Source: a virus
IMG/VR virus record: IMGVR_UViG_3300025343_000001
Strand: one strand, 5' to 3'
DNA: 8,343 nt
The first letter of the stretch is position 1. Each line of letters starts with the position of its first letter. Made by a program: the position numbers and the translations under genes. This document shows positions 351-8,343 of this stretch, in pieces. Under the pieces are notes generated by a model. It was not told the origin of the DNA. It did no database searches and was given only the letters and a program-made list of their open reading frames with translations.

Positions 351-752
351 TTACCGAACAGCGACACCCCAGGCGACGACGGTCGCGAGGAACGCGACGA
401 TCGGGCCGAGGTTGCTGCTAGTGTTGATAACGTCGGCGACCTGGGGAACGTACTGGTAGCTCGCGATGATGACCGGGCCGAGAGCGATCGCGACCTGTTC
501 CCACTGCTCGTAACTGTCAAACTGCTTAGTCTCACTGCTGGCGAAGGCAATCGCGTAGGCGCCCAGGGAGATGAATGTGGCGTGTTCGGCGGTGAGCGTG
601 TAGTCGATCCACGTCAGCAGCACCTCCGAGATCCCGCCGAACTGGTAGAGCCCGGCGATGATGAACACGACTGACAGCAGCGCGGGAAGCGTCCGCAGGT
701 GAGTGTAATCCGAGAGGACGTTGCCCATCGAGTTTGAGTAGGACGACGCCAT
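351..752 (-). CDS. Small integral membrane protein, about 4 predicted TM helices (possible virion internal membrane protein, VP3-like)
   Basis: 133-aa ORF with four hydrophobic stretches (LPALLSVVFIIAGLY, ATFISLGAYAIAFA, VAIALGPVIIASY, LGPIVAFLATVVAWGVAV). Its ATG overlaps the upstream stop as ATGA at 752. The membrane-protein call is from sequence; the VP3 analogy rests on gene order only. Confidence 0.6.
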   Translation of the reverse strand: MASSYSNSMGNVLSDYTHLRTLPALLSVVFIIAGLYQFGGISEVLLTWIDYTLTAEHATFISLGAYAIAFASSETKQFDSYEQWEQVAIALGPVIIASYQYVPQVADVINTSSNLGPIVAFLATVVAWGVAVR

Positions 753-1099
753 CAGGAGTCACCCTGAATCTTGCAGAAGGTGGGAAGGTAGTTCCCGCCG
801 TCGTCCAGCTCCTGCTCTTCGACACCACGGGCGATCCAGGCGGTATCACCAAGTTGGAGGTTGCCCTGCTTGAGCGCAGTCTTCACCTCATCTTTGGCGA
901 AATAGTCCACGACACCACGGTCTTTGTCCTTGATTGTGAGGCGGAACCACGGACCGTATTCGCTTTCCCCTTCGGTGATATCGAGGACAAACCCGACCAG
1001 CGTTTCACCAGGAGAAAGTTCGATTGCTTCCGATCCATCCGACGTAGGCGCGGCGGCATCAATGAAGCCGTCCGGCGCGGTTGGCGTTTCACTCGACAT
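752..1099 (-). CDS. Hypothetical small acidic protein (116 aa from the ATG at 1099; the ORF is open back to an ATG at 1183)
   Basis: ORF 752..1183 on the minus strand. The internal ATG at 1099 is preferred because codons upstream of it run through an AT-rich promoter-like island. No recognisable motif. ATGA coupling to the downstream membrane protein gene. Confidence 0.5.
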   Translation of the reverse strand: MSSETPTAPDGFIDAAAPTSDGSEAIELSPGETLVGFVLDITEGESEYGPWFRLTIKDKDRGVVDYFAKDEVKTALKQGNLQLGDTAWIARGVEEQELDDGGNYLPTFCKIQGDS

Positions 1100-1195
1100 T
1101 GCAATTACAAATGTGAACGATTTGCATATAAAGCATGAACCTGTGCGGAGTGAAAGTAAAACCCAGAACCAGCAGCACACCATGATTTATTATAT
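1100..1195 (-). promoter_or_regulatory. AT-rich promoter-like island between the replication gene stop and the small acidic protein gene
   Basis: Only strongly AT-rich stretch in this part of the window. On the minus strand it carries TATA-like elements (ccatataaatataataaatc near 1185..1204, ctttatatgc about 25-35 nt upstream of the ATG at 1099) and a short T-rich run after the upstream stop. Archaeal TATA and leaderless-mRNA logic is established knowledge; the assignment here is inference. Confidence 0.4.
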
Positions 1196-3229
1196 TTATA
1201 TGGTACTTTTGACTGTAGATCGGATTTCGTCGAGCGCGGACGGTGGGAGCATGAGCTGGCCAGCGATGGAGATAGGCGAAGTCTCGCCAGTAGTCTCAAC
1301 CAGCTCCCTAATCGCAACCAGCTCGCGTTCACCGAGTTTCGGTTCGGGTGACGACTGTCTCTCGAATCGGGTAGTGTACCAGTTATCAGACCACTGCTTT
1401 GGTGTCAACCGACGATCTGCGTGAACAGTTTCGCACCACTCGCGAGCGACCAGCTCCGGCGGGGGAACTCGACCGGAGCGAACATCAGATTCGTCGAAGA
1501 ACGACGGGTTTTCCCAGGGTTCCGGCCCTTCGAGGGAAGAGGATAGCGGGAGATACGGAAAGTCGGTTTTATCCATTATCGAGCCGGCTCCCTCAACGAC
1601 GATCGTGCCGTAGGCCGTAGCACCGGGAGATCCGATTTCGGTCACTTCCTCTGTTGAGAGCTGAACAACAGCATCAGGTGACCATTCGGGTTCCCGATCG
1701 AATCCATCTCGTTTCGTTTCAGCAGGTGGAGCTTCAGCAGAATCAGGTATCGGTACCTCTGCTGAAACCGTATGATTCGGAGATTCGGTTTCAGTGGCAC
1801 AGAGGGGACAGGTATCTGGTTCGGCGTGGCCACACCGTCGAAGGCGTGTCTCAGAACCGATCGACCCGGCCGATCGAGCCGAAGGCCACCGTTCTGCAAG
1901 TGTTTGAGGGATCTCATCAGTCTCTTCCTGGTCATCTGCAGATTGAGACAGACGGAAGCGTGCAAGCGACGACTCAGATTGATCGATACCGTGAGGGGAC
2001 CCGCACTCCGCGCATTCGTAGGTGAGTCCCGGTCTTGAAGAACGGACGATTGAATCGCCATGTTCAACAATCTGACCGGTTTGGGAGTCGAGATACTGTT
2101 GTTGACAGGCATCGGCTTTGACAGCCGCCGTTGCCCACCGCGAGCGGCTGTATTTCTGTGTCGTCGTCGACCATTGAGAGGCGGCCCAAATTAAATACTC
2201 GTCCGAACGCTCAAGGAGGTCTTGGTCCGGATCGACGGCGACATATTCGGAGACGTAGGACGCGAAGTCCTGAATCTCGTCGTCTTTGCGCACAGTCACT
2301 GCACGATCCATATCGTGTGCAGACCAAGCGGCGCCCTCACACTCAGAGACGTGTTTCGCGACGACCGGACGGTAAGTCTCTGGGTCAGTTGCGACACTCG
2401 TGGAGATCGCAGCTGCATCGAGGATAACGACGGGATGGCTGTGAGAATAGCCCGTCGCGTCTTCCTGTGGGCCGGGATGGGGTTCGGACTGCCAGTGCCA
2501 GACGTATTCACCGGACGAGAGTCCGAGTTTGTCCTCAAGAACATAGCGAAGCGTTCGTTTCACCGAATTTGAAGAACCTGACCACGCATCACGAATCCCC
2601 CGATCGTGATCAGCTATCGGACGAAACGACCCATCGTCCTCAAGCGACGAGGCGGTCAGACCGAACAAAACCGTAACGGGCTCGGAGAACTCGGGTTCGC
2701 AAGTATGTCCCCTCGGATATTCTCCACCCATAAACTGACGCTCTAAAGCCTTGAGACGTGCGTACTGGGCAGTCTGATACGACGGGGTGAGACTGTTGTC
2801 CATATCGATCAAGAACGATTCGTAGTCGTTCCGGACCTCGGAGCCGCGAGCCATCCGAAGAAACTTGTCGCGATATCCTTCGTACCATTCAAGCATTTCC
2901 TGAATGCCAGCGATCAGCGGGAGAGACCCACGCGAAACGGTTTCCTCGATCTTTTTCTCTTCGGTTTCGCCAATTTCAACGACCCGAGTGACCGTCTCAG
3001 GCTCCTCAAGTACCTCTTCGCGAAGTTTCCGACCGTGGACGGTGGAGATAGGTTCGAAGACGCGATCTCCGTACCGTTCGATAATTCCAGAGATCCGTTC
3101 TTCAACGGTCGGGAGACCGGAAGGACGGAAAGATAGTTCTGGTGACTCAGGGCCTGTATCGGTCGACGCGGGGTTAGTCACGTTGGATAGCCAAGCCGCA
3201 TCCGCATCGGCTTCCCGCGGCGAGCTCAT
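1196..3229 (-). CDS. Putative replication initiation protein, 677 aa, with an HUH-like motif and a Cys4 zinc-ribbon-like region
   Basis: Longest ORF in the window. HSHPVVIL (codons at 2420..2443) fits the HUH motif 2 of rolling-circle Rep proteins. Upstream VLFGLT (about 2654..2671) is a weak motif-1 candidate; downstream tyrosines YRPVVAK and YVSEY (about 2243..2257) are motif-3 candidates. CAEC ... CGH ... CPLC lies at about 1799..2014. No Walker A motif. The function is inferred from motifs only. Confidence 0.5.
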   Translation of the reverse strand: MSSPREADADAAWLSNVTNPASTDTGPESPELSFRPSGLPTVEERISGIIERYGDRVFEPISTVHGRKLREEVLEEPETVTRVVEIGETEEKKIEETVSRGSLPLIAGIQEMLEWYEGYRDKFLRMARGSEVRNDYESFLIDMDNSLTPSYQTAQYARLKALERQFMGGEYPRGHTCEPEFSEPVTVLFGLTASSLEDDGSFRPIADHDRGIRDAWSGSSNSVKRTLRYVLEDKLGLSSGEYVWHWQSEPHPGPQEDATGYSHSHPVVILDAAAISTSVATDPETYRPVVAKHVSECEGAAWSAHDMDRAVTVRKDDEIQDFASYVSEYVAVDPDQDLLERSDEYLIWAASQWSTTTQKYSRSRWATAAVKADACQQQYLDSQTGQIVEHGDSIVRSSRPGLTYECAECGSPHGIDQSESSLARFRLSQSADDQEETDEIPQTLAERWPSARSAGSIGSETRLRRCGHAEPDTCPLCATETESPNHTVSAEVPIPDSAEAPPAETKRDGFDREPEWSPDAVVQLSTEEVTEIGSPGATAYGTIVVEGAGSIMDKTDFPYLPLSSSLEGPEPWENPSFFDESDVRSGRVPPPELVAREWCETVHADRRLTPKQWSDNWYTTRFERQSSPEPKLGERELVAIRELVETTGETSPISIAGQLMLPPSALDEIRSTVKSTI

Positions 3230-3254: not shown

Positions 3255-3671
3255 TCACAGAAACCGCCCCCGCCCAGCAGACTCGGAGAGGCCCGGCCCA
3301 AGGCCGGGTGCGGCGACAGAGTCGCCGGTCGGGTCAGCCCCCCGTTGAAGGGGGGCTGCTTCCGCCCGTGATTGCGACGGCGATTGGCGCTCGCCGTCGC
3401 TTCCGCCACCGCCACTCGTTTGGCGAGCTTCGGTCGCCTGTGAGCGGTCGGCGCAGCTAGATCCGCGTTCGAGGCAGTCGAGCGCGTGGCCGTATTCGAT
3501 TCCCGTGGTCAGGTTGCTGGTACATCTCTGTCCGCAGACAGGACACCAGAATTCACCCGGGCCGTCAGCGGTGAGATGAGAGTTGGAGTTAGAACGGGAA
3601 CCGAGAGTCGCGTCGCTGGAGAGATCATCTAGATCGGCGTCCTCGACGAAGTCGGAGAGATCGTCGTCCAT
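3255..3671 (-). CDS. Small zinc-finger protein with acidic N-terminus (138 aa from the ATG at 3671; the ORF is open back to 3794)
   Basis: ORF 3255..3794. The ATG at 3671 is preferred because upstream codons cross the AT-rich promoter island and hairpins. Contains CPVCGQRC ... H ... C ... C (CxxC plus His/Cys). N-terminus MDDDLSDFVEDADLDDL is encoded by the 48-bp repeat. Confidence 0.5.
   Translation of the reverse strand: MDDDLSDFVEDADLDDLSSDATLGSRSNSNSHLTADGPGEFWCPVCGQRCTSNLTTGIEYGHALDCLERGSSCADRSQATEARQTSGGGGSDGERQSPSQSRAEAAPLQRGADPTGDSVAAPGLGPGLSESAGRGRFL
3292..3357. promoter_or_regulatory. Cluster of three consecutive perfect GC-rich hairpins just upstream of the replication gene start (candidate origin or operator)
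   Basis: Hairpin 1: cccggcc/ggccggg, 7-bp stem, loop caa (3292..3308). Hairpin 2: cggcgac/gtcgccg, 7-bp stem, loop aga (3311..3327). Hairpin 3: agcccccc/ggggggct, 8-bp stem, loop gttgaa (3336..3357). It overlaps the 3' end of the zinc-finger ORF. Confidence 0.4.
3621..3668. repeat. 48-bp imperfect direct repeat, copy A (43/48 identical to 4903..4950); encodes acidic motif DDDLSDFVEDADLDDL
   Basis: Manual alignment of gagatcAtctagatcggCgtcctcgacgaAgtcggagagAtcgtcgTc against copy B gives 5 mismatches. Contains tctagatcgg. Confidence 0.85.
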
Positions 3672-3735
3672 GACGAAATTAATTCTAGGGAGATACAACA
3701 TATATGTTTTGGTCTGTGATAGCAGTGTTGACACT
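3672..3735 (-). promoter_or_regulatory. AT-rich promoter-like island upstream of the zinc-finger and replication gene pair
   Basis: Minus strand reads aaaacatatatgttgtatctccctagaattaatttcgtc immediately before the ATG at 3671. A TATA-like element sits about 25-35 nt upstream of the start codon, consistent with a leaderless transcript. Confidence 0.4.
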
Positions 3736-3751
3736 AAGGGTATTGTAAGCC

Positions 3752-3812
3752 GCGCGGCCCCCCACAAGGAGGGGCCGCGCAGGCTGCCGCCCACTGAAAA
3801 GGGTGGGTGGGT
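3752..3812 (-). terminator. Hairpin plus T-tract terminator-like structure downstream of the NTPase gene
   Basis: Perfect 10-bp GC stem gcgcggcccc/ggggccgcgc (3752..3761 with 3771..3780, 9-nt loop), followed by a second shorter hairpin cccac/gtggg whose loop on the coding strand contains TTTT. It lies directly after the NTPase stop and before the promoter-like island. Confidence 0.4.
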
Positions 3813-3860
3813 CGGTGAGTGGAGAACCGTGTTTAGATGTGATTATCGGACGAATTATGA

Positions 3861-4817
3861 CTATGCCGGTCCACGGTCGCGAAGCTCATCAAGAAGATCG
3901 GGCCAGTCGAGGTCGAGTGCGAATAGGTCGGGTTCGAGGTTCCAGTCCCACGGCGCCGCGTCATTCGGGTCCGGTTCCGCGGTGGCAGGTTCGAGATTTT
4001 CCAGGGACCCGCCGAACAGCTGATCGGTAGGCTTGTCGGCATCAGCAGGCCAGTTTTCGAAGAAGTCGACTTCCTTCTTTGAGTGTTTGAAGTACGCGGT
4101 CGTGAACAGCCGCTTCAGCTCAGGGTGACAGTCCTTGCCCGTGTGGAACACCGTGCCGAACACGTCGACGTTGACCTTCGCCATCCGCTTGGCGAGCGGC
4201 GAGAATTGCGCCGCGACCTCGTAGGAGTTAGTTCGAGCATCGAAGTGAGTCGACCCCTCATCGATGAAGACGAACTTCGGCCGATCGCGATGTTTGATGC
4301 AGGTGACTGCGAGGTCGTGTGCGCTGGTAACGACCTTGTCCGTGAGCGGCCAGGTCCGCGAGTTAGATATGACAAGGAGATCGTCGACGGTCGCGGAACG
4401 GAGCTCGGCAAGCAACGACATCAGGTTCGTCTTGCCCGTGTTCGGGTTACCGCAGCCACCGATGAACGCGGTCGCGTCATTGTTGGTCATCATGTCGTCG
4501 AGCCGCAGCGGGAGACGCAGCGCCGAGGCGTCGAGGTCCTGCTCAGTGATACCGACCAAATGTGAGAGCAACAAGGAGTTACCAGAATGGATCGCTTCGG
4601 ACGCCTGCCGGGACTGCTGGGTCCGATCGACGAGGGACAGCAGCTCGGAGTGCCCGGACACGTCGGGATCAATATCGTCGAGGAACACAGAGGCAGCCAC
4701 ATCGTCGGGAGCGAGTGCACCCGCACCGGAGGCGAGGTTTCGGTCCGTATCGATGTTCCCGGCCAGCTGTTCGGCGAGCTTCGCCGCGGTCAGCATCCCC
4801 TCATCGGAATCACCCAT
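3861..4817 (-). CDS. P-loop NTPase (Walker A GNPNTGKT, Walker B FVFIDE); candidate virion-associated ATPase
   Basis: 318-aa ORF. Walker A is encoded at 4428..4451 (checked by reverse-complement translation) and Walker B about 50 residues later at about 4257..4274. Start overlaps the upstream gene by 8 nt. Confidence 0.8.
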   Translation of the reverse strand: MGDSDEGMLTAAKLAEQLAGNIDTDRNLASGAGALAPDDVAASVFLDDIDPDVSGHSELLSLVDRTQQSRQASEAIHSGNSLLLSHLVGITEQDLDASALRLPLRLDDMMTNNDATAFIGGCGNPNTGKTNLMSLLAELRSATVDDLLVISNSRTWPLTDKVVTSAHDLAVTCIKHRDRPKFVFIDEGSTHFDARTNSYEVAAQFSPLAKRMAKVNVDVFGTVFHTGKDCHPELKRLFTTAYFKHSKKEVDFFENWPADADKPTDQLFGGSLENLEPATAEPDPNDAAPWDWNLEPDLFALDLDWPDLLDELRDRGPA

Positions 4818-5652
4818 CGGCGGACACCTCCGGTTTCTCTACGTGGCCGTTCCGATCAGTAGCGGGCTCGGGCTCCGAAAAGTCGAACCCGGACTTGTGG
4901 TCGAGATCGTCTAGATCGGAGTCCTCGACGAGGTCGGAGAGGTCGTCGCCGGAGTCGTCAGCCAGTCCGAACTCCTCAAGTTCCTGGTCGATCGCACGGC
5001 CGAGTCCGTCGCCCGAGTCGGGGAGCGAGCCGTCCTCGAACAACTCGACGACGCGCTCAACGGTGTTGCGGGTGGCGCGGCGGACGACCGTGAACGCGGA
5101 GGTTTCGAGGATGAATCCGCGCTGGGCGTCTTCCTGGAGTTGGCCGCGGCATTCGTGGACCGCACGAAGGGCACGGGTAAGCTCCCGATCGTCAAGCGTG
5201 CCGCGCCAGGTTCCTACGACGGTCATGTCTTCTAGGTCGACCTGTTTTGAGACGTAGAGGTTCGGGGACAGTTGGGTGATGTCGTAGGAGGTGTTGATGA
5301 ACCCGTCGTCGTCGAGAACGTCCATTTCGCGGAAGTCCTCGGGCGGGAGTCGGTAGATACCGCCGTCGAGTACGCGGGCATCGAGGTCGATCAGCCAGAC
5401 AAACGAGGGGTTGTAGAGCCAGCTAACGACCTTCGAGCCGGTCCACCAGCCGAGAGGCGTCGCGAACAACGCGGCGAATCCGGCGATGCGCCAGAAGCGG
5501 GGAATCGATGCGTCGAAGCCAGCGACCATCGCGACGATCGTGGTGACGACAGACAGCACGATCAGCTGGGGAACGCGAGCGCGGGCCCAGTCGAGTAGGT
5601 CCAGGTGAGCGGGCTGTTCGTCTCGGGTCGAAGGTGGGTCATGCTGAGTCAT
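4810..5652 (-). CDS. Membrane protein with two N-terminal TM helices and a long acidic C-terminal domain
   Basis: 280-aa ORF with hydrophobic segments VPQLIVLSVVTTIVAMVAGF and IAGFAALFATPLGWWTGSKVVSWL. ATGA start/stop overlap with the upstream gene at 5649..5652. C-terminus carries the acidic DDLSDLVEDSDLDDL motif encoded by the 48-bp repeat. Confidence 0.65.
   Translation of the reverse strand: MTQHDPPSTRDEQPAHLDLLDWARARVPQLIVLSVVTTIVAMVAGFDASIPRFWRIAGFAALFATPLGWWTGSKVVSWLYNPSFVWLIDLDARVLDGGIYRLPPEDFREMDVLDDDGFINTSYDITQLSPNLYVSKQVDLEDMTVVGTWRGTLDDRELTRALRAVHECRGQLQEDAQRGFILETSAFTVVRRATRNTVERVVELFEDGSLPDSGDGLGRAIDQELEEFGLADDSGDDLSDLVEDSDLDDLDHKSGFDFSEPEPATDRNGHVEKPEVSADG
4903..4950. repeat. 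48-bp imperfect direct repeat, copy B; encodes acidic motif DDLSDLVEDSDLDDL near the C-terminus of the 2-TM membrane protein
   Basis: gagatcGtctagatcggAgtcctcgacgaGgtcggagagGtcgtcgCc. Same reading frame and peptide register as copy A, but in a different gene. Confidence 0.85.
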
Positions 5653-6182
5653 GCTATTCTCTCGGGTTGTTCAACGCGACCGTAGACGCGGCGAGCGACG
5701 AGATACAGCGTGGTGAGAGCGACACCGAGCGCGGCGCCGACCCCAGCAGCTTGTGAGTCCGAAGCAGTGAACGGGCCGGCGACGATCGTCGAAGAGGTTT
5801 CGAGCGGGACGCCGTACAGTGTGGTTCCGTCGTCGACGGTGACTCCAGCGCGCCCGTCCGAAGAGACGACACGCATGCGGATTTCGGTCTTCCCATCGAC
5901 GATGAAGCTCTGTCTGTTAAGTTCGCGCGGTTCGCGGAGTACAACGGCCTCAGTGACGGTGACGCGATCGCGGGTGTCAGAGTCGAGGACCAGGACGGCT
6001 TCACCGTTGACGAAGTCAGAGGAACAGAGCCGAAGAGTCGGCGTTATCTCTTGTGAACAGGTTTCGGGCTGTTCCACGTCGGTCGGGTTCTCAACGGTCG
6101 CGTTCGGGGAGTCTTGAGCGGCGACAGATCCGGTCAGGGACACCACTATCACGAGAGCGATTAGGAAAGATCGAGGGAGCAT
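5649..6182 (-). CDS. Secreted type-I membrane protein with signal peptide and C-terminal TM anchor (177 aa from the ATG at 6182; the ORF is open back to 6356)
   Basis: From the ATG at 6182: MLPRSFLIALVIVVSLTGSVAAQDS is signal-peptide-like, and the C-terminus has AAGVGAALGVALTTLYLVARR followed by basic residues. The extension to 6356 encodes an Arg-rich stretch overlapping the spike gene in another frame and is probably not translated. Confidence 0.6.
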   Translation of the reverse strand: MLPRSFLIALVIVVSLTGSVAAQDSPNATVENPTDVEQPETCSQEITPTLRLCSSDFVNGEAVLVLDSDTRDRVTVTEAVVLREPRELNRQSFIVDGKTEIRMRVVSSDGRAGVTVDDGTTLYGVPLETSSTIVAGPFTASDSQAAGVGAALGVALTTLYLVARRVYGRVEQPERIA

Positions 6183-6187
6183 GGTTG

Positions 6188-7957
6188 TTAGTTGTTCAGA
6201 CCGAAGAAGGCGACCACGGCACCGACGCCGAGAGCGACGACTTCTCCGGGCAGTCCGAACATGTCGAGCTGTCCGAGGTCGAGGCCGCCGCCGTTGTTCT
6301 GCGAGTCCTCGAACTTCTCGATCAGGTCTTGATTCTGTTTTTCGAGCTGATCCCACTCCTCCTGTGAAACGTAGTTGTCGTCAGTCTGTGGTTGAGCGTT
6401 GTCGAAGCTCGTAGTCGAAACTTCTTCACCAGATTCAGTGTTCATCAACTTGTCGACGCTAAACGGGCCGTCGAGTTGCAGCGTTTCAAACTGCGTCTCG
6501 GTGGCGGCGGAGACGAAGCGCGCAGATTCAACGTTCGTGATGTTGGTTTCGAGGTCAGCCGAGGCGTCGTAGGACCACGTGCCGTCGCCGTTATCCGTCC
6601 AGTCAACAGCAGGGACAGAGACGGTTTCAGAGGCAGCAGTTGTCACTTCGATTGCGGTTCCCTCATACGGTTCCTCAGTGATCGTTATGGATCCACCATC
6701 GACCGCCGTCTCATAGGCGACCCAGTCGCCCGATACAAGACTCGTGTCGGCCGTGAAGTACACATCACCGACGAAGGTGGACGGGTCGTAGGTCGTACCC
6801 GACTCAATCGGGCCGTCCGACGAGTCGGTTAGCCCGAACGTGCCGGACAGCGTTGCGCCAGTGCTGTTGATAGTGATTGTCGCCTCGCGTTCGAGATCGA
6901 CCGGAATATTAAGCGCAATGAGGTCAGAGATTGCCTGCGAGGTGCCTTCCTCCTCGCTCATCATAGCAGCGCGTTCGCGAGGCGTCACGAGGTCACTGAC
7001 CGAGAGCTCGCCGGACTGAACATCGCCGTAGACGTTCGTAACCCACATCGAGATGCCATCCAAGACGCTTTGGTGCACGGTCGAGATCTCGTCATGGATT
7101 CCCTTCCACGTAGGCCCGTCTAAATATATGACGCTTTCGCCGTCGGGGTTGGGGTTGGAAACGATGACGTTGAAGTTATGGTCGACGTTGTAACCGCGCA
7201 CGTCCAAATTCAGAGGATCAGCAACGGCCCGTGCGCCTTCCACCATACCATTCACGCCCTCTAACTGAAAGGTCGACCCATCGAACAACGTAATGTCTCG
7301 GGTCAATTTGTCCGTGAAATTGCCGAAGTCGCGGTCAACCTTAGTGACCCCTGAATCCAGCACCGCACCCGGACTCAGGTCAGGGTGCGACTGCAGAGTC
7401 GACCGCAGATTGTAGAACTCGCGGACCGACTCATTCCATGTCTTGAGTAGATTCTCCTGAACCGTGCTCAGGTAGGCAGACACAGCAGATTTCGCCGCGG
7501 TTTGAACCTCAGACTCAGAGACTCCCGCGTTCAATTGCTCAATGGCGGCGATCTTGGCGTCGACGTAGGCGGTGTTTTCCACGCCGTCAAGGATGTTCTG
7601 GTTGTCGATGATCGTCGAGGCGTTCGTCGACTTCCGGGTTTTCACAGTCTGATAGACCTGCTGTTTCAGCACGTCACCAGTTAGTCCCTCAGCAGGTGCG
7701 TCAGAGCCGACGACCTCGTATTCACGGAGAGCCCAACCGAGTGCGACAGAGCCGGCGACACCACCGGCAATGATAACCGGAGCGATAGCCTGCCCGTTTT
7801 GGACGGGCGAGCCAGCGACTCGTGATCCGCCGTAGTAGGCCGCGCCAGCGCCAATTGTGGTAGCTCCAACCCGGCCAAGGAATTGTCGTCGATTGATACC
7901 TTCGTGATCTAGATCATCATCTAGATCGGTGTGTTTGTTCTTATTCATTGGAATCAC
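6188..7957 (-). CDS. Envelope/spike-like glycoprotein candidate, 589 aa: twin-arginine signal, large ectodomain, coiled-coil-like segment, C-terminal TM anchor
   Basis: N-terminus has INRRQFLGRVGATTIGAGAA (Tat-type RRxFLG motif plus hydrophobic region). C-terminus LPGEVVALGVGAVVAFFGL is a TM anchor, preceded by the heptad-like QEEWDQLEKQNQDLIEKFE. Five N-x-S/T sequons (NAS, NES, NFT, NST, NIT). The spike function is inferred by analogy to pleolipovirus VP4-type proteins. Confidence 0.7.
   Translation of the reverse strand: MIPMNKNKHTDLDDDLDHEGINRRQFLGRVGATTIGAGAAYYGGSRVAGSPVQNGQAIAPVIIAGGVAGSVALGWALREYEVVGSDAPAEGLTGDVLKQQVYQTVKTRKSTNASTIIDNQNILDGVENTAYVDAKIAAIEQLNAGVSESEVQTAAKSAVSAYLSTVQENLLKTWNESVREFYNLRSTLQSHPDLSPGAVLDSGVTKVDRDFGNFTDKLTRDITLFDGSTFQLEGVNGMVEGARAVADPLNLDVRGYNVDHNFNVIVSNPNPDGESVIYLDGPTWKGIHDEISTVHQSVLDGISMWVTNVYGDVQSGELSVSDLVTPRERAAMMSEEEGTSQAISDLIALNIPVDLEREATITINSTGATLSGTFGLTDSSDGPIESGTTYDPSTFVGDVYFTADTSLVSGDWVAYETAVDGGSITITEEPYEGTAIEVTTAASETVSVPAVDWTDNGDGTWSYDASADLETNITNVESARFVSAATETQFETLQLDGPFSVDKLMNTESGEEVSTTSFDNAQPQTDDNYVSQEEWDQLEKQNQDLIEKFEDSQNNGGGLDLGQLDMFGLPGEVVALGVGAVVAFFGLNN
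7906..7927. repeat. Tandem CTAGATC motifs including a perfect 10-bp palindrome gatctagatc, at the 5' end of the spike gene
   Basis: gatctagatc at 7906..7915 and tctagatcgg at 7920..7929. Encodes HTDLDDDLDH in the spike N-terminal region. Same core motif as the 48-bp repeats. Confidence 0.6.
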
Positions 7958-8135: not shown

Positions 8136-8335
8136 TGGCATTTCTCCCCGTTTTCGGAAGAGCATATTGAGCTCCCCGAACAGTGCGGGCAGTCTGTTCC
8201 GTGCATCACTGAGTCAAAGATGCGGTGGCAACTGCAACACCGATGTTTGACACAGGGACCGTGCGATAGAGCGGCGTCTGCACGTTCTATTCGCTGGTTG
8301 AACCGAGTCGAAATGATGTTGATGGCGATTAACAT
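8132..8335 (-). CDS. Small Cys/His-rich protein (67 aa), crossing the terminal-repeat junction
   Basis: CVKHRCCSCH ... H ... CPHCSGSSIC pattern. First gene of the apparent spike operon. No clear TATA box upstream, so support is weak. Confidence 0.3.
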   Translation of the reverse strand: MLIAINIISTRFNQRIERADAALSHGPCVKHRCCSCHRIFDSVMHGTDCPHCSGSSICSSENGEKCQ

Positions 8336-8343
8336 ATTCGCTG
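8217..8343. repeat. Terminal direct repeat, right copy (identical to 1..127)
   Basis: Exact identity to 1..127. The minus-strand ORF 8132..8335 runs through it, so in the circular molecule that ORF begins at coordinate 119. Confidence 0.95.

Follow-up and report, generated by a model that had tools for sequence, protein, structure and literature searches.

A short acidic coding motif common to the ORF7-like membrane protein and a CxxC zinc-finger protein of a Halorubrum-type alphapleolipovirus: a probable graft between unrelated genes through microhomology

In described pleolipoviruses, ORF7 (open reading frame 7 in HRPV-1 numbering; PHROG 5952) and the NTPase gene that follows it have been reported as the most conserved genes, with congruent phylogenies (PMC10599561). 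The same gene order, with ORF7 upstream of and overlapping the NTPase gene, is found in Halorubrum virus Humcor2, HRPV-1, HRPV-2, HRPV-6, HHPV-1 and HHPV-2. Halorubrum alphapleolipoviruses encode small CxxC/CPxCG proteins upstream of rep (e.g. HrrHm2_005 of Humcor2). The subject of this analysis is a 48-bp direct repeat that joins an ORF7-like gene and a CxxC gene in IMG/VR virus record IMGVR_UViG_3300025343_000001, a metagenome-assembled contig of 8,343 nucleotides (nt), which is called the window throughout, positions being counted from its first letter. Positions 1-127 of the window are identical to positions 8217-8343, and because this terminal overlap of 127 nt is exact, the contig is a circular genome of 8216 nt, that of a Halorubrum-type alphapleolipovirus whose nearest isolates are Humcor2 and HRPV-2 and HRPV-6. 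The ORF7-like protein resembles pleolipovirus ORF7 in its profile match, its two transmembrane (TM) helices, its ORF6-like and NTPase flanks and its stop/start overlap, and its acidic tail ends in HKSGFDF like those of Humcor2 and HRPV-2/6; it differs from the family in that the tail reads VED rather than VDD and in that the window alone has a CTA codon that creates TCTAGA. The CxxC protein shares with its relatives the core DGPGEFWCPxCGxRCT...EYGHALDC and the position upstream of rep, but the relatives have about 57 amino acids and start at a GTG directly before the core, whereas the window has a new ATG, a leader that carries the ORF7 motif and a frame that runs on through hairpins.

The repeat is interpreted here as the probable outcome of a microhomology-mediated graft, in which a protein-level docking motif passed from the ORF7-like gene into the leader of the zinc-finger gene. 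The features that bear on this interpretation are the following.

3255-3671, minus strand: CxxC (CPVCG...H...C) zinc-finger ORF upstream of rep, an open frame of 138 amino acids with its conserved core at about 3465-3560
3621-3668, minus strand: copy A, the graft and derived copy, codons 2-17 of the CxxC zinc-finger protein, encoding DDDLSDFVEDADLDDL
3627-3658, within copy A: the transferred tract of 32 nt; 3659-3668 (GACGACGATC, coding strand) and 3621-3626 (GATCTC) are also present in the pre-event allele
3672-3710, minus strand: short region 5' of the CxxC gene, aligned in 10 alleles, with TATA-like CATATATG at 3699-3706, 27-35 nt before the ATG
4810-5652, minus strand: ORF7-like core membrane protein of 280 amino acids (phrog_5952), in which a soluble domain and an acidic tail follow two TM helices at the N-terminus
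4879-4950, minus strand: complete conserved ORF7 tail motif, [SD]DLSDLVDDxx[IL]D[DE][LM][DE]HKSGFDF, from 28 distinct orthologous DNAs
4903-4950, minus strand: copy B, of the donor type, encoding G-DDLSDLVEDSDLDDL (GDDLSDLVEDSDLDDL) as residues 235-250 of the ORF7-like protein
4903-4908, 4909-4940 and 4941-4950, parts of copy B read on the plus strand: right microhomology GAGATC, core of 32 nt, and left microhomology

Read directly against each other, 3621-3668 and 4903-4950 are identical at 43 of 48 positions, and a repeat search returned 3621-3666 and 4903-4948 as a pair of 46 nt with 91% identity and a spacing of 1282. The coordinates and identity given in an initial annotation, made from the sequence alone, are thereby borne out, as is its placement of copy A at the opening of the zinc-finger protein and of copy B near the C-terminus of the 280-residue protein with two TM helices. 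The copies encode DDLSDFVEDADLDDL and DDLSDLVEDSDLDDL in the same frame, both on the coding (minus) strand. Copy B lies 86-133 nt upstream of the NTPase ATG (4817), the ATG of the CxxC frame occupies 3671-3669, and the NTPase gene sits between the two copies. When direct repeats in the circular genome were scored with +1 for a match and -2 for a mismatch, the best score was 34, compared with a mean of 13.6 (standard deviation 1.1) and a maximum of 17 in 60 codon-preserving shuffles of every gene; the match is far beyond chance, as had been supposed. The five mismatches comprise two synonymous changes (GAT/GAC twice) and three non-synonymous ones (D/G, F/L and A/S). The sequence tctagatcgg, described at the outset as palindromic, is so only in its cores, TCTAGA or, in copy A, ATCTAGAT.

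The ORF7-like protein matches phrog_5952 over nearly all of its length (E=1.1e-104, residues 6-274), and all of its 80 database homologues carry PF26446 and PF26447 (DUF8125/DUF8126). Its TM helices are placed at residues 15-45 and 52-79 in an AlphaFold2 model of low confidence, and the annotation of the Humcor2 homologue lists two TM domains. The tail motif is found in Humcor2 (DLSDLVDDEVIDEMDHKSGFDF) and in HRPV-2/6 (SLDDLVDDLDLDDAEHKSGFDF), in looser acidic-hydrophobic versions in HRPV-1 and HHPV-1/2, and in about 50 of the 80 database homologues, every homologue down to about 60% identity having it. Alignment columns D240, V242, H252, S254, G255, F256 and F258 are invariant. Across the 28 distinct ORF7 DNAs, these invariant residues stand on varying codons (TCG, TCC, AGC or TCA for Ser19 of the motif, all four codons for Gly20), and the Leu, Asp and Val codons of the motif vary at third positions. 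Because the residues are invariant despite synonymous codon change, selection is taken to act on the tail peptide, the pattern being a signature of purifying selection on the motif in ORF7. VDD is present in 24 of the 28 distinct tails, and VED replaces it in the window. Copy B is the ancestral copy; copy A holds only the first two-thirds of the motif, HKSGFDF not having been copied. The stop codon of ORF7 overlaps the start of the NTPase gene by 8 nt (ATGGGTGA, 4810-4835), with a Shine-Dalgarno-like GGAGGTG 9 nt upstream, an arrangement that implies probable translational coupling of the two genes, and conservation of the last ORF7 residues (EVSADG/D) is attributed to this overlap. A phmmer search with 35 residues of the tail against 1.84 billion representative proteins returned one ORF7 only, a query so short having low power, and a literature search found no paper on the tail motif, on DUF8125/DUF8126 or on a function for this family. 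As a by-product of the analysis, a sharply conserved and previously undescribed ORF7 tail motif is defined.

The zinc-finger core (DGPGEFWCPVCGQRCT...EYGHALDC) is homologous to the 57-residue CxxC motif protein of Humcor2 (tblastn, 70% identity over residues 33-69), and in an alignment with about 18 related CxxC proteins the core GPGEFWCPxCG...EYGHALDC upstream of rep is present in the window protein. In Humcor2 and about 17 Halorubrum proviruses the CxxC protein lacks an acidic extension: its start codon is GTG, its first residues are VSLG, VSLT or VSLS, and a stop codon closely precedes the start. The acidic DDLSDxVED is not a feature of the CxxC family, being absent from these genomes and from alleles L014-L016, L042, L046, L047, L060 and L062. 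A position-specific score derived from the ORF7 motif was used to scan 94 loci (876 kilobases) in six frames, and the matches were confined to ORF7 tails and to the CxxC N-termini of one narrow lineage. Besides the window, copy A is carried by nine metagenome contigs (the carriers named are L010, L011, L017-L020, L048 and L090). The sister genome L042, 91.6% identical to the window over 3.9 kilobases, has copy B in ORF7 and a CxxC allele that lacks the motif. By its distribution, copy A is young, derived and restricted to one lineage. The proposal that both proteins share a protein motif is consequently upheld for ORF7, with its conserved tails, and not for the zinc-finger protein, about 18 relatives of which are without it; absence from homologues, which had been offered as a sign of recent neutral duplication, was found for the zinc-finger gene and not for ORF7. 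The region upstream of the CxxC gene is identical in motif and no-motif alleles, and the CxxC mRNA is predicted to be near-leaderless, with its first ATG opening the acidic extension. A match in Halorubrum trueperi (P0010) was set aside as a degraded, uninformative CxxC-Rep remnant.

The junctions of the transferred tract can be read from the alleles of the CxxC gene. Motif and no-motif alleles all start with ATGGACGACGATC and have GATCTCTCCAG in common. The no-motif allele (L015, L016 and L042) runs on as CCCGACAAACCGCGTCCACCGATACCCAC-GATCTCTCCAGC..., an upstream ORF of 24 codons (MDDDPRQTASTDTHDLSSCWRLSA*) whose stop TGA overlaps the ancestral GTG start (GTGA). In the motif allele TCTCCGACTTCGTCGAGGACGCCGATCTAGAT, of 32 nt, replaces 29 nt between flanks that are both identical to those of the no-motif allele; a deletion of 14 nt with substitutions is also present, by which the TGA/GTG is lost and the leader is fused in frame to the zinc finger. 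Donor and recipient match at 8 of 10 positions at the left junction (microhomology GACGAyC, GGCGACGACC versus GACGACGATC) and at 6 of 6 at the right junction (GATCTC), and because they match at both, the repeat of 48 bp is resolved into a transferred tract of 32 nt and two microhomologies. The replaced segments resemble each other no more than shuffled sequence does (p=0.14). Of the 13 residues identical between the copies, 11 use the same codon, compared with 5.8 expected (P=0.003), among them CTA, which accounts for 7% of Leu codons; this excess confirms that the copies are related by descent at the DNA level. The derived Glu of VED is common only to copy A and to the ORF7 of the clade of the window and P0014, for which reason this clade's own ORF7 is identified as the donor. 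The suggestion that the repeat is a footprint of intragenomic recombination thus gains support from the pre-event allele, from microhomology at both junctions and from the excess of shared codons. Products of recombination between the direct repeats, that is, ORF7-CxxC fusions that lack the NTPase gene, were found in none of the 94 loci.

In the proposed sequence of events, a 32-nt tract of ORF7 would have displaced 29 nt of the CxxC leader between GACGAyC and GATCTC, most likely by copy-choice (template switching) or short-patch conversion during rolling-circle replication, and a small deletion would then have joined the leader in frame to the zinc finger. Copy-choice and short-patch conversion in small Rep-encoding rolling-circle replicons resemble the event in the short tract, the microhomologies of 6-10 nt, the confinement to one replicon and the mosaic neighbours, but the outcome here differs: instead of a deletion, a duplication or a homologous exchange, it is a coding segment grafted in frame into an unrelated gene. 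Microhomology transfer of a short coding patch is of a known kind, and the window is a new and unusually well-polarised instance of it, not a new class of element; its interest is that of a clean, polarised example of a tiny rolling-circle genome apparently shuffling a coding motif between unrelated genes via microhomology. The ORF7 motif would reside in a disordered, presumably cytoplasmic tail, any action of the repeat would be exerted by the protein and not by the DNA, and the zinc-finger protein, displaying the acidic peptide of ORF7, would be predicted to bind the partner that ORF7 binds. That partner may be the NTPase or some other factor in assembly or replication; the NTPase is the first guess because ORF7 and the NTPase gene are adjacent, overlapping and most conserved, with congruent trees.

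Three explanations would dispense with a transferred protein motif, and each has some evidence in its favour. A cis-regulatory DNA element was raised in the initial annotation; in its fuller form, a cis-acting DNA or RNA element around TCTAGATCGG that would lie within coding sequence and serve as an iteron, a promoter element or a binding site for a protein, this reading is very improbable. Its attraction is that TCTAGATCGG occurs exactly three times, all on one strand (3628, 4910 and 7920), where 0.63 matches are expected with at most one mismatch, that all three sites lie within about 140 nt of a gene start, and that every copy A allele keeps CTA. The bias to one strand is explained by the location of all genes on one strand, and CTAG is neither avoided nor enriched in the genome (9 observed, 9.2 expected), an idea that was rejected. 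The codon in question is CTA in just one of the 28 distinct ORF7 tail DNAs, that of the window, the others reading CTC, CTT, ATC or ATT; sisters with 92-97% identity (L042 and L045-L047) read GCC GAT CTC GAT GAT CTC, by which TCTAGA is destroyed and the peptide kept. Because the TCTAGA core is thus private to copy B of the window, being absent from all 27 other distinct tail DNAs, in which synonymous sites vary freely, a conserved cis-element is argued against. Both copies are inside ORFs, and the likely origin hairpins are elsewhere (3285-3425 and 3745-3830). Iterons and other Rep-binding repeats are likewise short direct repeats on one strand, but the copies in the window are coding, 1.3 kilobases apart, away from the origin-like hairpins and not conserved as DNA in relatives. 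The third site belongs to the spike gene, where ATCATCTAGATCGGTGT (7916-7932), which agrees with copy A in 16 of its 17 positions, encodes HTDLDDDLDHEG in the n-region of the Tat signal. As a third copy of the repeat it was rejected, since a gapped local alignment of the ORF7 tail to it scored 12, compared with 12.9 (standard deviation 1.2) in the codon-shuffled null. The n-regions of spike relatives read MNHDLDHEG, MNKNKHTDLDHEG or MNKNKHTDLDDDLD(H/R)(E)G, and the stretch is regarded as an internal, lineage-specific expansion of a GATCTAGAT unit in that spike lineage, therefore outside the repeat family.

Convergent evolution of the same acidic peptide in two proteins, with no transfer of DNA, might be entertained on the ground that Asp, Glu and Leu abound in haloarchaeal proteins and that other termini encoded by this genome, such as the C-terminus of the NTPase (DLFALDLDWPDLLDEL), are similarly acidic-hydrophobic; it is scarcely credible given the codon identity above expectation, which extends to the rare CTA and to the derived GAG, the nucleotide score about 18 standard deviations over the codon-preserving null, and a pre-event allele with sharp junctions. 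An assembly chimera, which the origin of the window as a metagenome-assembled contig might suggest, is just as remote a prospect: nine further contigs, which come from independent assemblies of JGI and ENA, have copy A in the CxxC context, copy B in the ORF7 context is universal among relatives, and both copies are in frame.

The graft of a docking motif, which we consider probable, is more seriously challenged by a reading that accepts the same recombinational origin and holds that copy A is a neutral passenger, an acidic extension that drifts and has no effect on the zinc-finger protein; this is quite possible, if short of probable. The CxxC leader (3560-3671), compared in the window and in L014-L020, L042, L046-L048, L060, L062 and L090, is a hot spot of mosaicism: at least five alleles of it exist among genomes otherwise more than 90% identical, some of which have the motif and others not. 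A short in-frame leader allele, MDDDPGQIASTTVDRPTGTNLTAD, is shared by L046, L047, L060 and L062, and L014 has an independent in-frame leader fusion, unrelated to the motif. Several observations weigh against a function of copy A in docking. Its three variants are the reference, D2N, and A12S together with L17P; D2N, A12S and L17P are all non-synonymous, and L17P changes a conserved hydrophobic position to proline, so that the alleles give no sign of purifying selection on copy A and no positive evidence of constraint. Since the motif allele circulates together with alleles that lack copy A, and since the graft does not include the invariant HKSGFDF half, copy A is possibly non-functional. Acidic stretches are common in haloarchaeal proteins. 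With respect to the tail itself, the helical hydrophobic moment of the 15-mer is 0.19-0.23, which is not that of a clean amphipathic helix, and the AlphaFold2 model of ORF7 is poor (32-sequence alignment; mean predicted local distance difference test score, pLDDT, of 49.7 and less than 40 in the tail), which leaves the description of the tail as disordered weakly based. The net charge of -22 over 75 residues of the ORF7 tail, the low moment and the low modelled pLDDT would be more in keeping with a disordered linear motif of acidic-hydrophobic character than with a stable amphipathic helix.

Against neutrality, the motif allele is in frame and has been kept in about ten contigs, which come from several independent samples of JGI and ENA and represent two backbones, one with the NTPase gene upstream of the allele and one with an AbrB-like gene and then an origin-like element; motif-bearing protein clusters have at least as many member sequences as motif-less ones (21 versus 12); and the fusion to the zinc finger required a second change, the deletion of 14 nt that removed TGA/GTG. 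Copy A could recruit the zinc-finger protein to the same partner as ORF7, could serve as an intramolecular acidic tail, or could be neutral. As a separate observation, A12S (GCC to TCC) in copy A of L010, L011 and L048 gives the Ser of copy B of the window, and CTA is present in all copy A alleles and in copy B of the window and not in the copy B sequences of sister genomes; either parallel change or repeated exchange between the copies would produce such sharing.

Docking through copy A would place the acidic peptide beside viral short linear motifs and acidic docking tails, which it resembles in being short, in occupying a tail that is modelled with low confidence and may be disordered, in being conserved beside variable flanks and in being carried by unrelated proteins. 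Point mutation is the route usually assumed for the origin of linear motifs, and the motif of the window differs in having apparently moved as a patch of DNA within one genome of 8 kilobases. A bolder extension, which is doubtful, is that the acidic DLSDLVxD..LDDL is a portable pleolipovirus address tag that docks proteins on the ORF7/NTPase machinery, or on a host factor, at the membrane, and that the zinc-finger protein captured it by template switching. If that were true, the zinc-finger protein, which is encoded beside rep and may be a factor in replication or regulation, would have been rewired to the site of ORF7/NTPase or of a host factor, and the spread of a linear motif by DNA copying would be directly observable in an ssDNA-type (single-stranded DNA) genome of 8 kilobases. 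The co-circulating zinc-finger alleles with and without the motif amount to a natural experiment.

The remaining genes of the window are as follows.

351-752, minus strand: VP3-like membrane protein
752-1102, minus strand: small ORF
1196-3229, minus strand: Rep, with DUF1424
3861-4817, minus strand: VP8-like P-loop NTPase, with Walker A GNPNTGKT and Walker B FVFIDE, matching phrog_1979 (E=1.7e-97) and the annotations of Humcor2 and HRPV
5649-6182, minus strand: ORF6-like protein
6188-7957, minus strand: spike with a Tat signal
Wrapping the origin of numbering, minus strand: two small Cys-rich ORFs

The minus strand carries all convincingly long ORFs, in the order CxxC, Rep, small ORF, VP3-like protein, two Cys-rich ORFs, spike, ORF6-like protein, ORF7-like protein and NTPase. 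An ORF of 137 amino acids, membrane/Cys-rich in character, crosses the junction of the circle (ATG near 329, end 8132) and is missed by a linear listing of ORFs. A Pfam profile search gave no match for ORF7, the CxxC protein, the NTPase or the spike; sequence searches of PDB with the ORF7 profile and the NTPase gave none, and neither did a search of a plasmid collection.

A cluster of perfect hairpins occupies 3285-3425 (minus strand), just upstream of the Rep ATG and in the 3' half of the zinc-finger ORF of 138 amino acids, with stems GCGACGGCGA/TCGCCGTCGC, CAGCCCCCC/GGGGGGCTG and CCCGGCC/GGCCGGG. Folded as single-stranded DNA, it has a minimum free energy (MFE) of -51 kcal/mol, whereas shuffles have -34.5 kcal/mol (z -5.7). 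The second hairpin differs in sequence in related contigs and still pairs (CAGGGGC..GCCCCTG, or CAGCCCCCC..GGGGGGCTG with a different loop), and in L017 and L018 the complete element also precedes the promoter of the CxxC gene. The cluster is a candidate rolling-circle origin. The length of the relatives, about 57 residues, suggests that the real zinc-finger protein may be much shorter than its ORF, and the 3' half of the frame, through the hairpin cluster, may be non-coding. Two further strong hairpins, GCGCGGCCCC..GGGGCCGCGC and CCCAC..GTGGG, directly follow the NTPase stop codon at 3745-3830 (minus strand), with an MFE of -28.4 kcal/mol, compared with -15.8 kcal/mol for shuffles (z -5.6), and could be a terminator or a single-strand origin.

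The N-terminus of the spike (7895-7957, minus strand) reads MNKNKHTDLDDDLDHEG-INRRQFL and contains GATCTAGAT twice, relatives having 0 to 2 DLD units. An identical n-region is attached to spikes of only 47% identity (P0206), a hint of a recombination breakpoint immediately behind the signal peptide. The sister genome L045 has an NTPase 97% identical to that of the window but a different spike N-terminus and lineage (MSSKNEISTSGE...RRTFVKGLG), and because a near-identical NTPase is paired there with a different spike lineage, the structural module is mosaic even among very close relatives.

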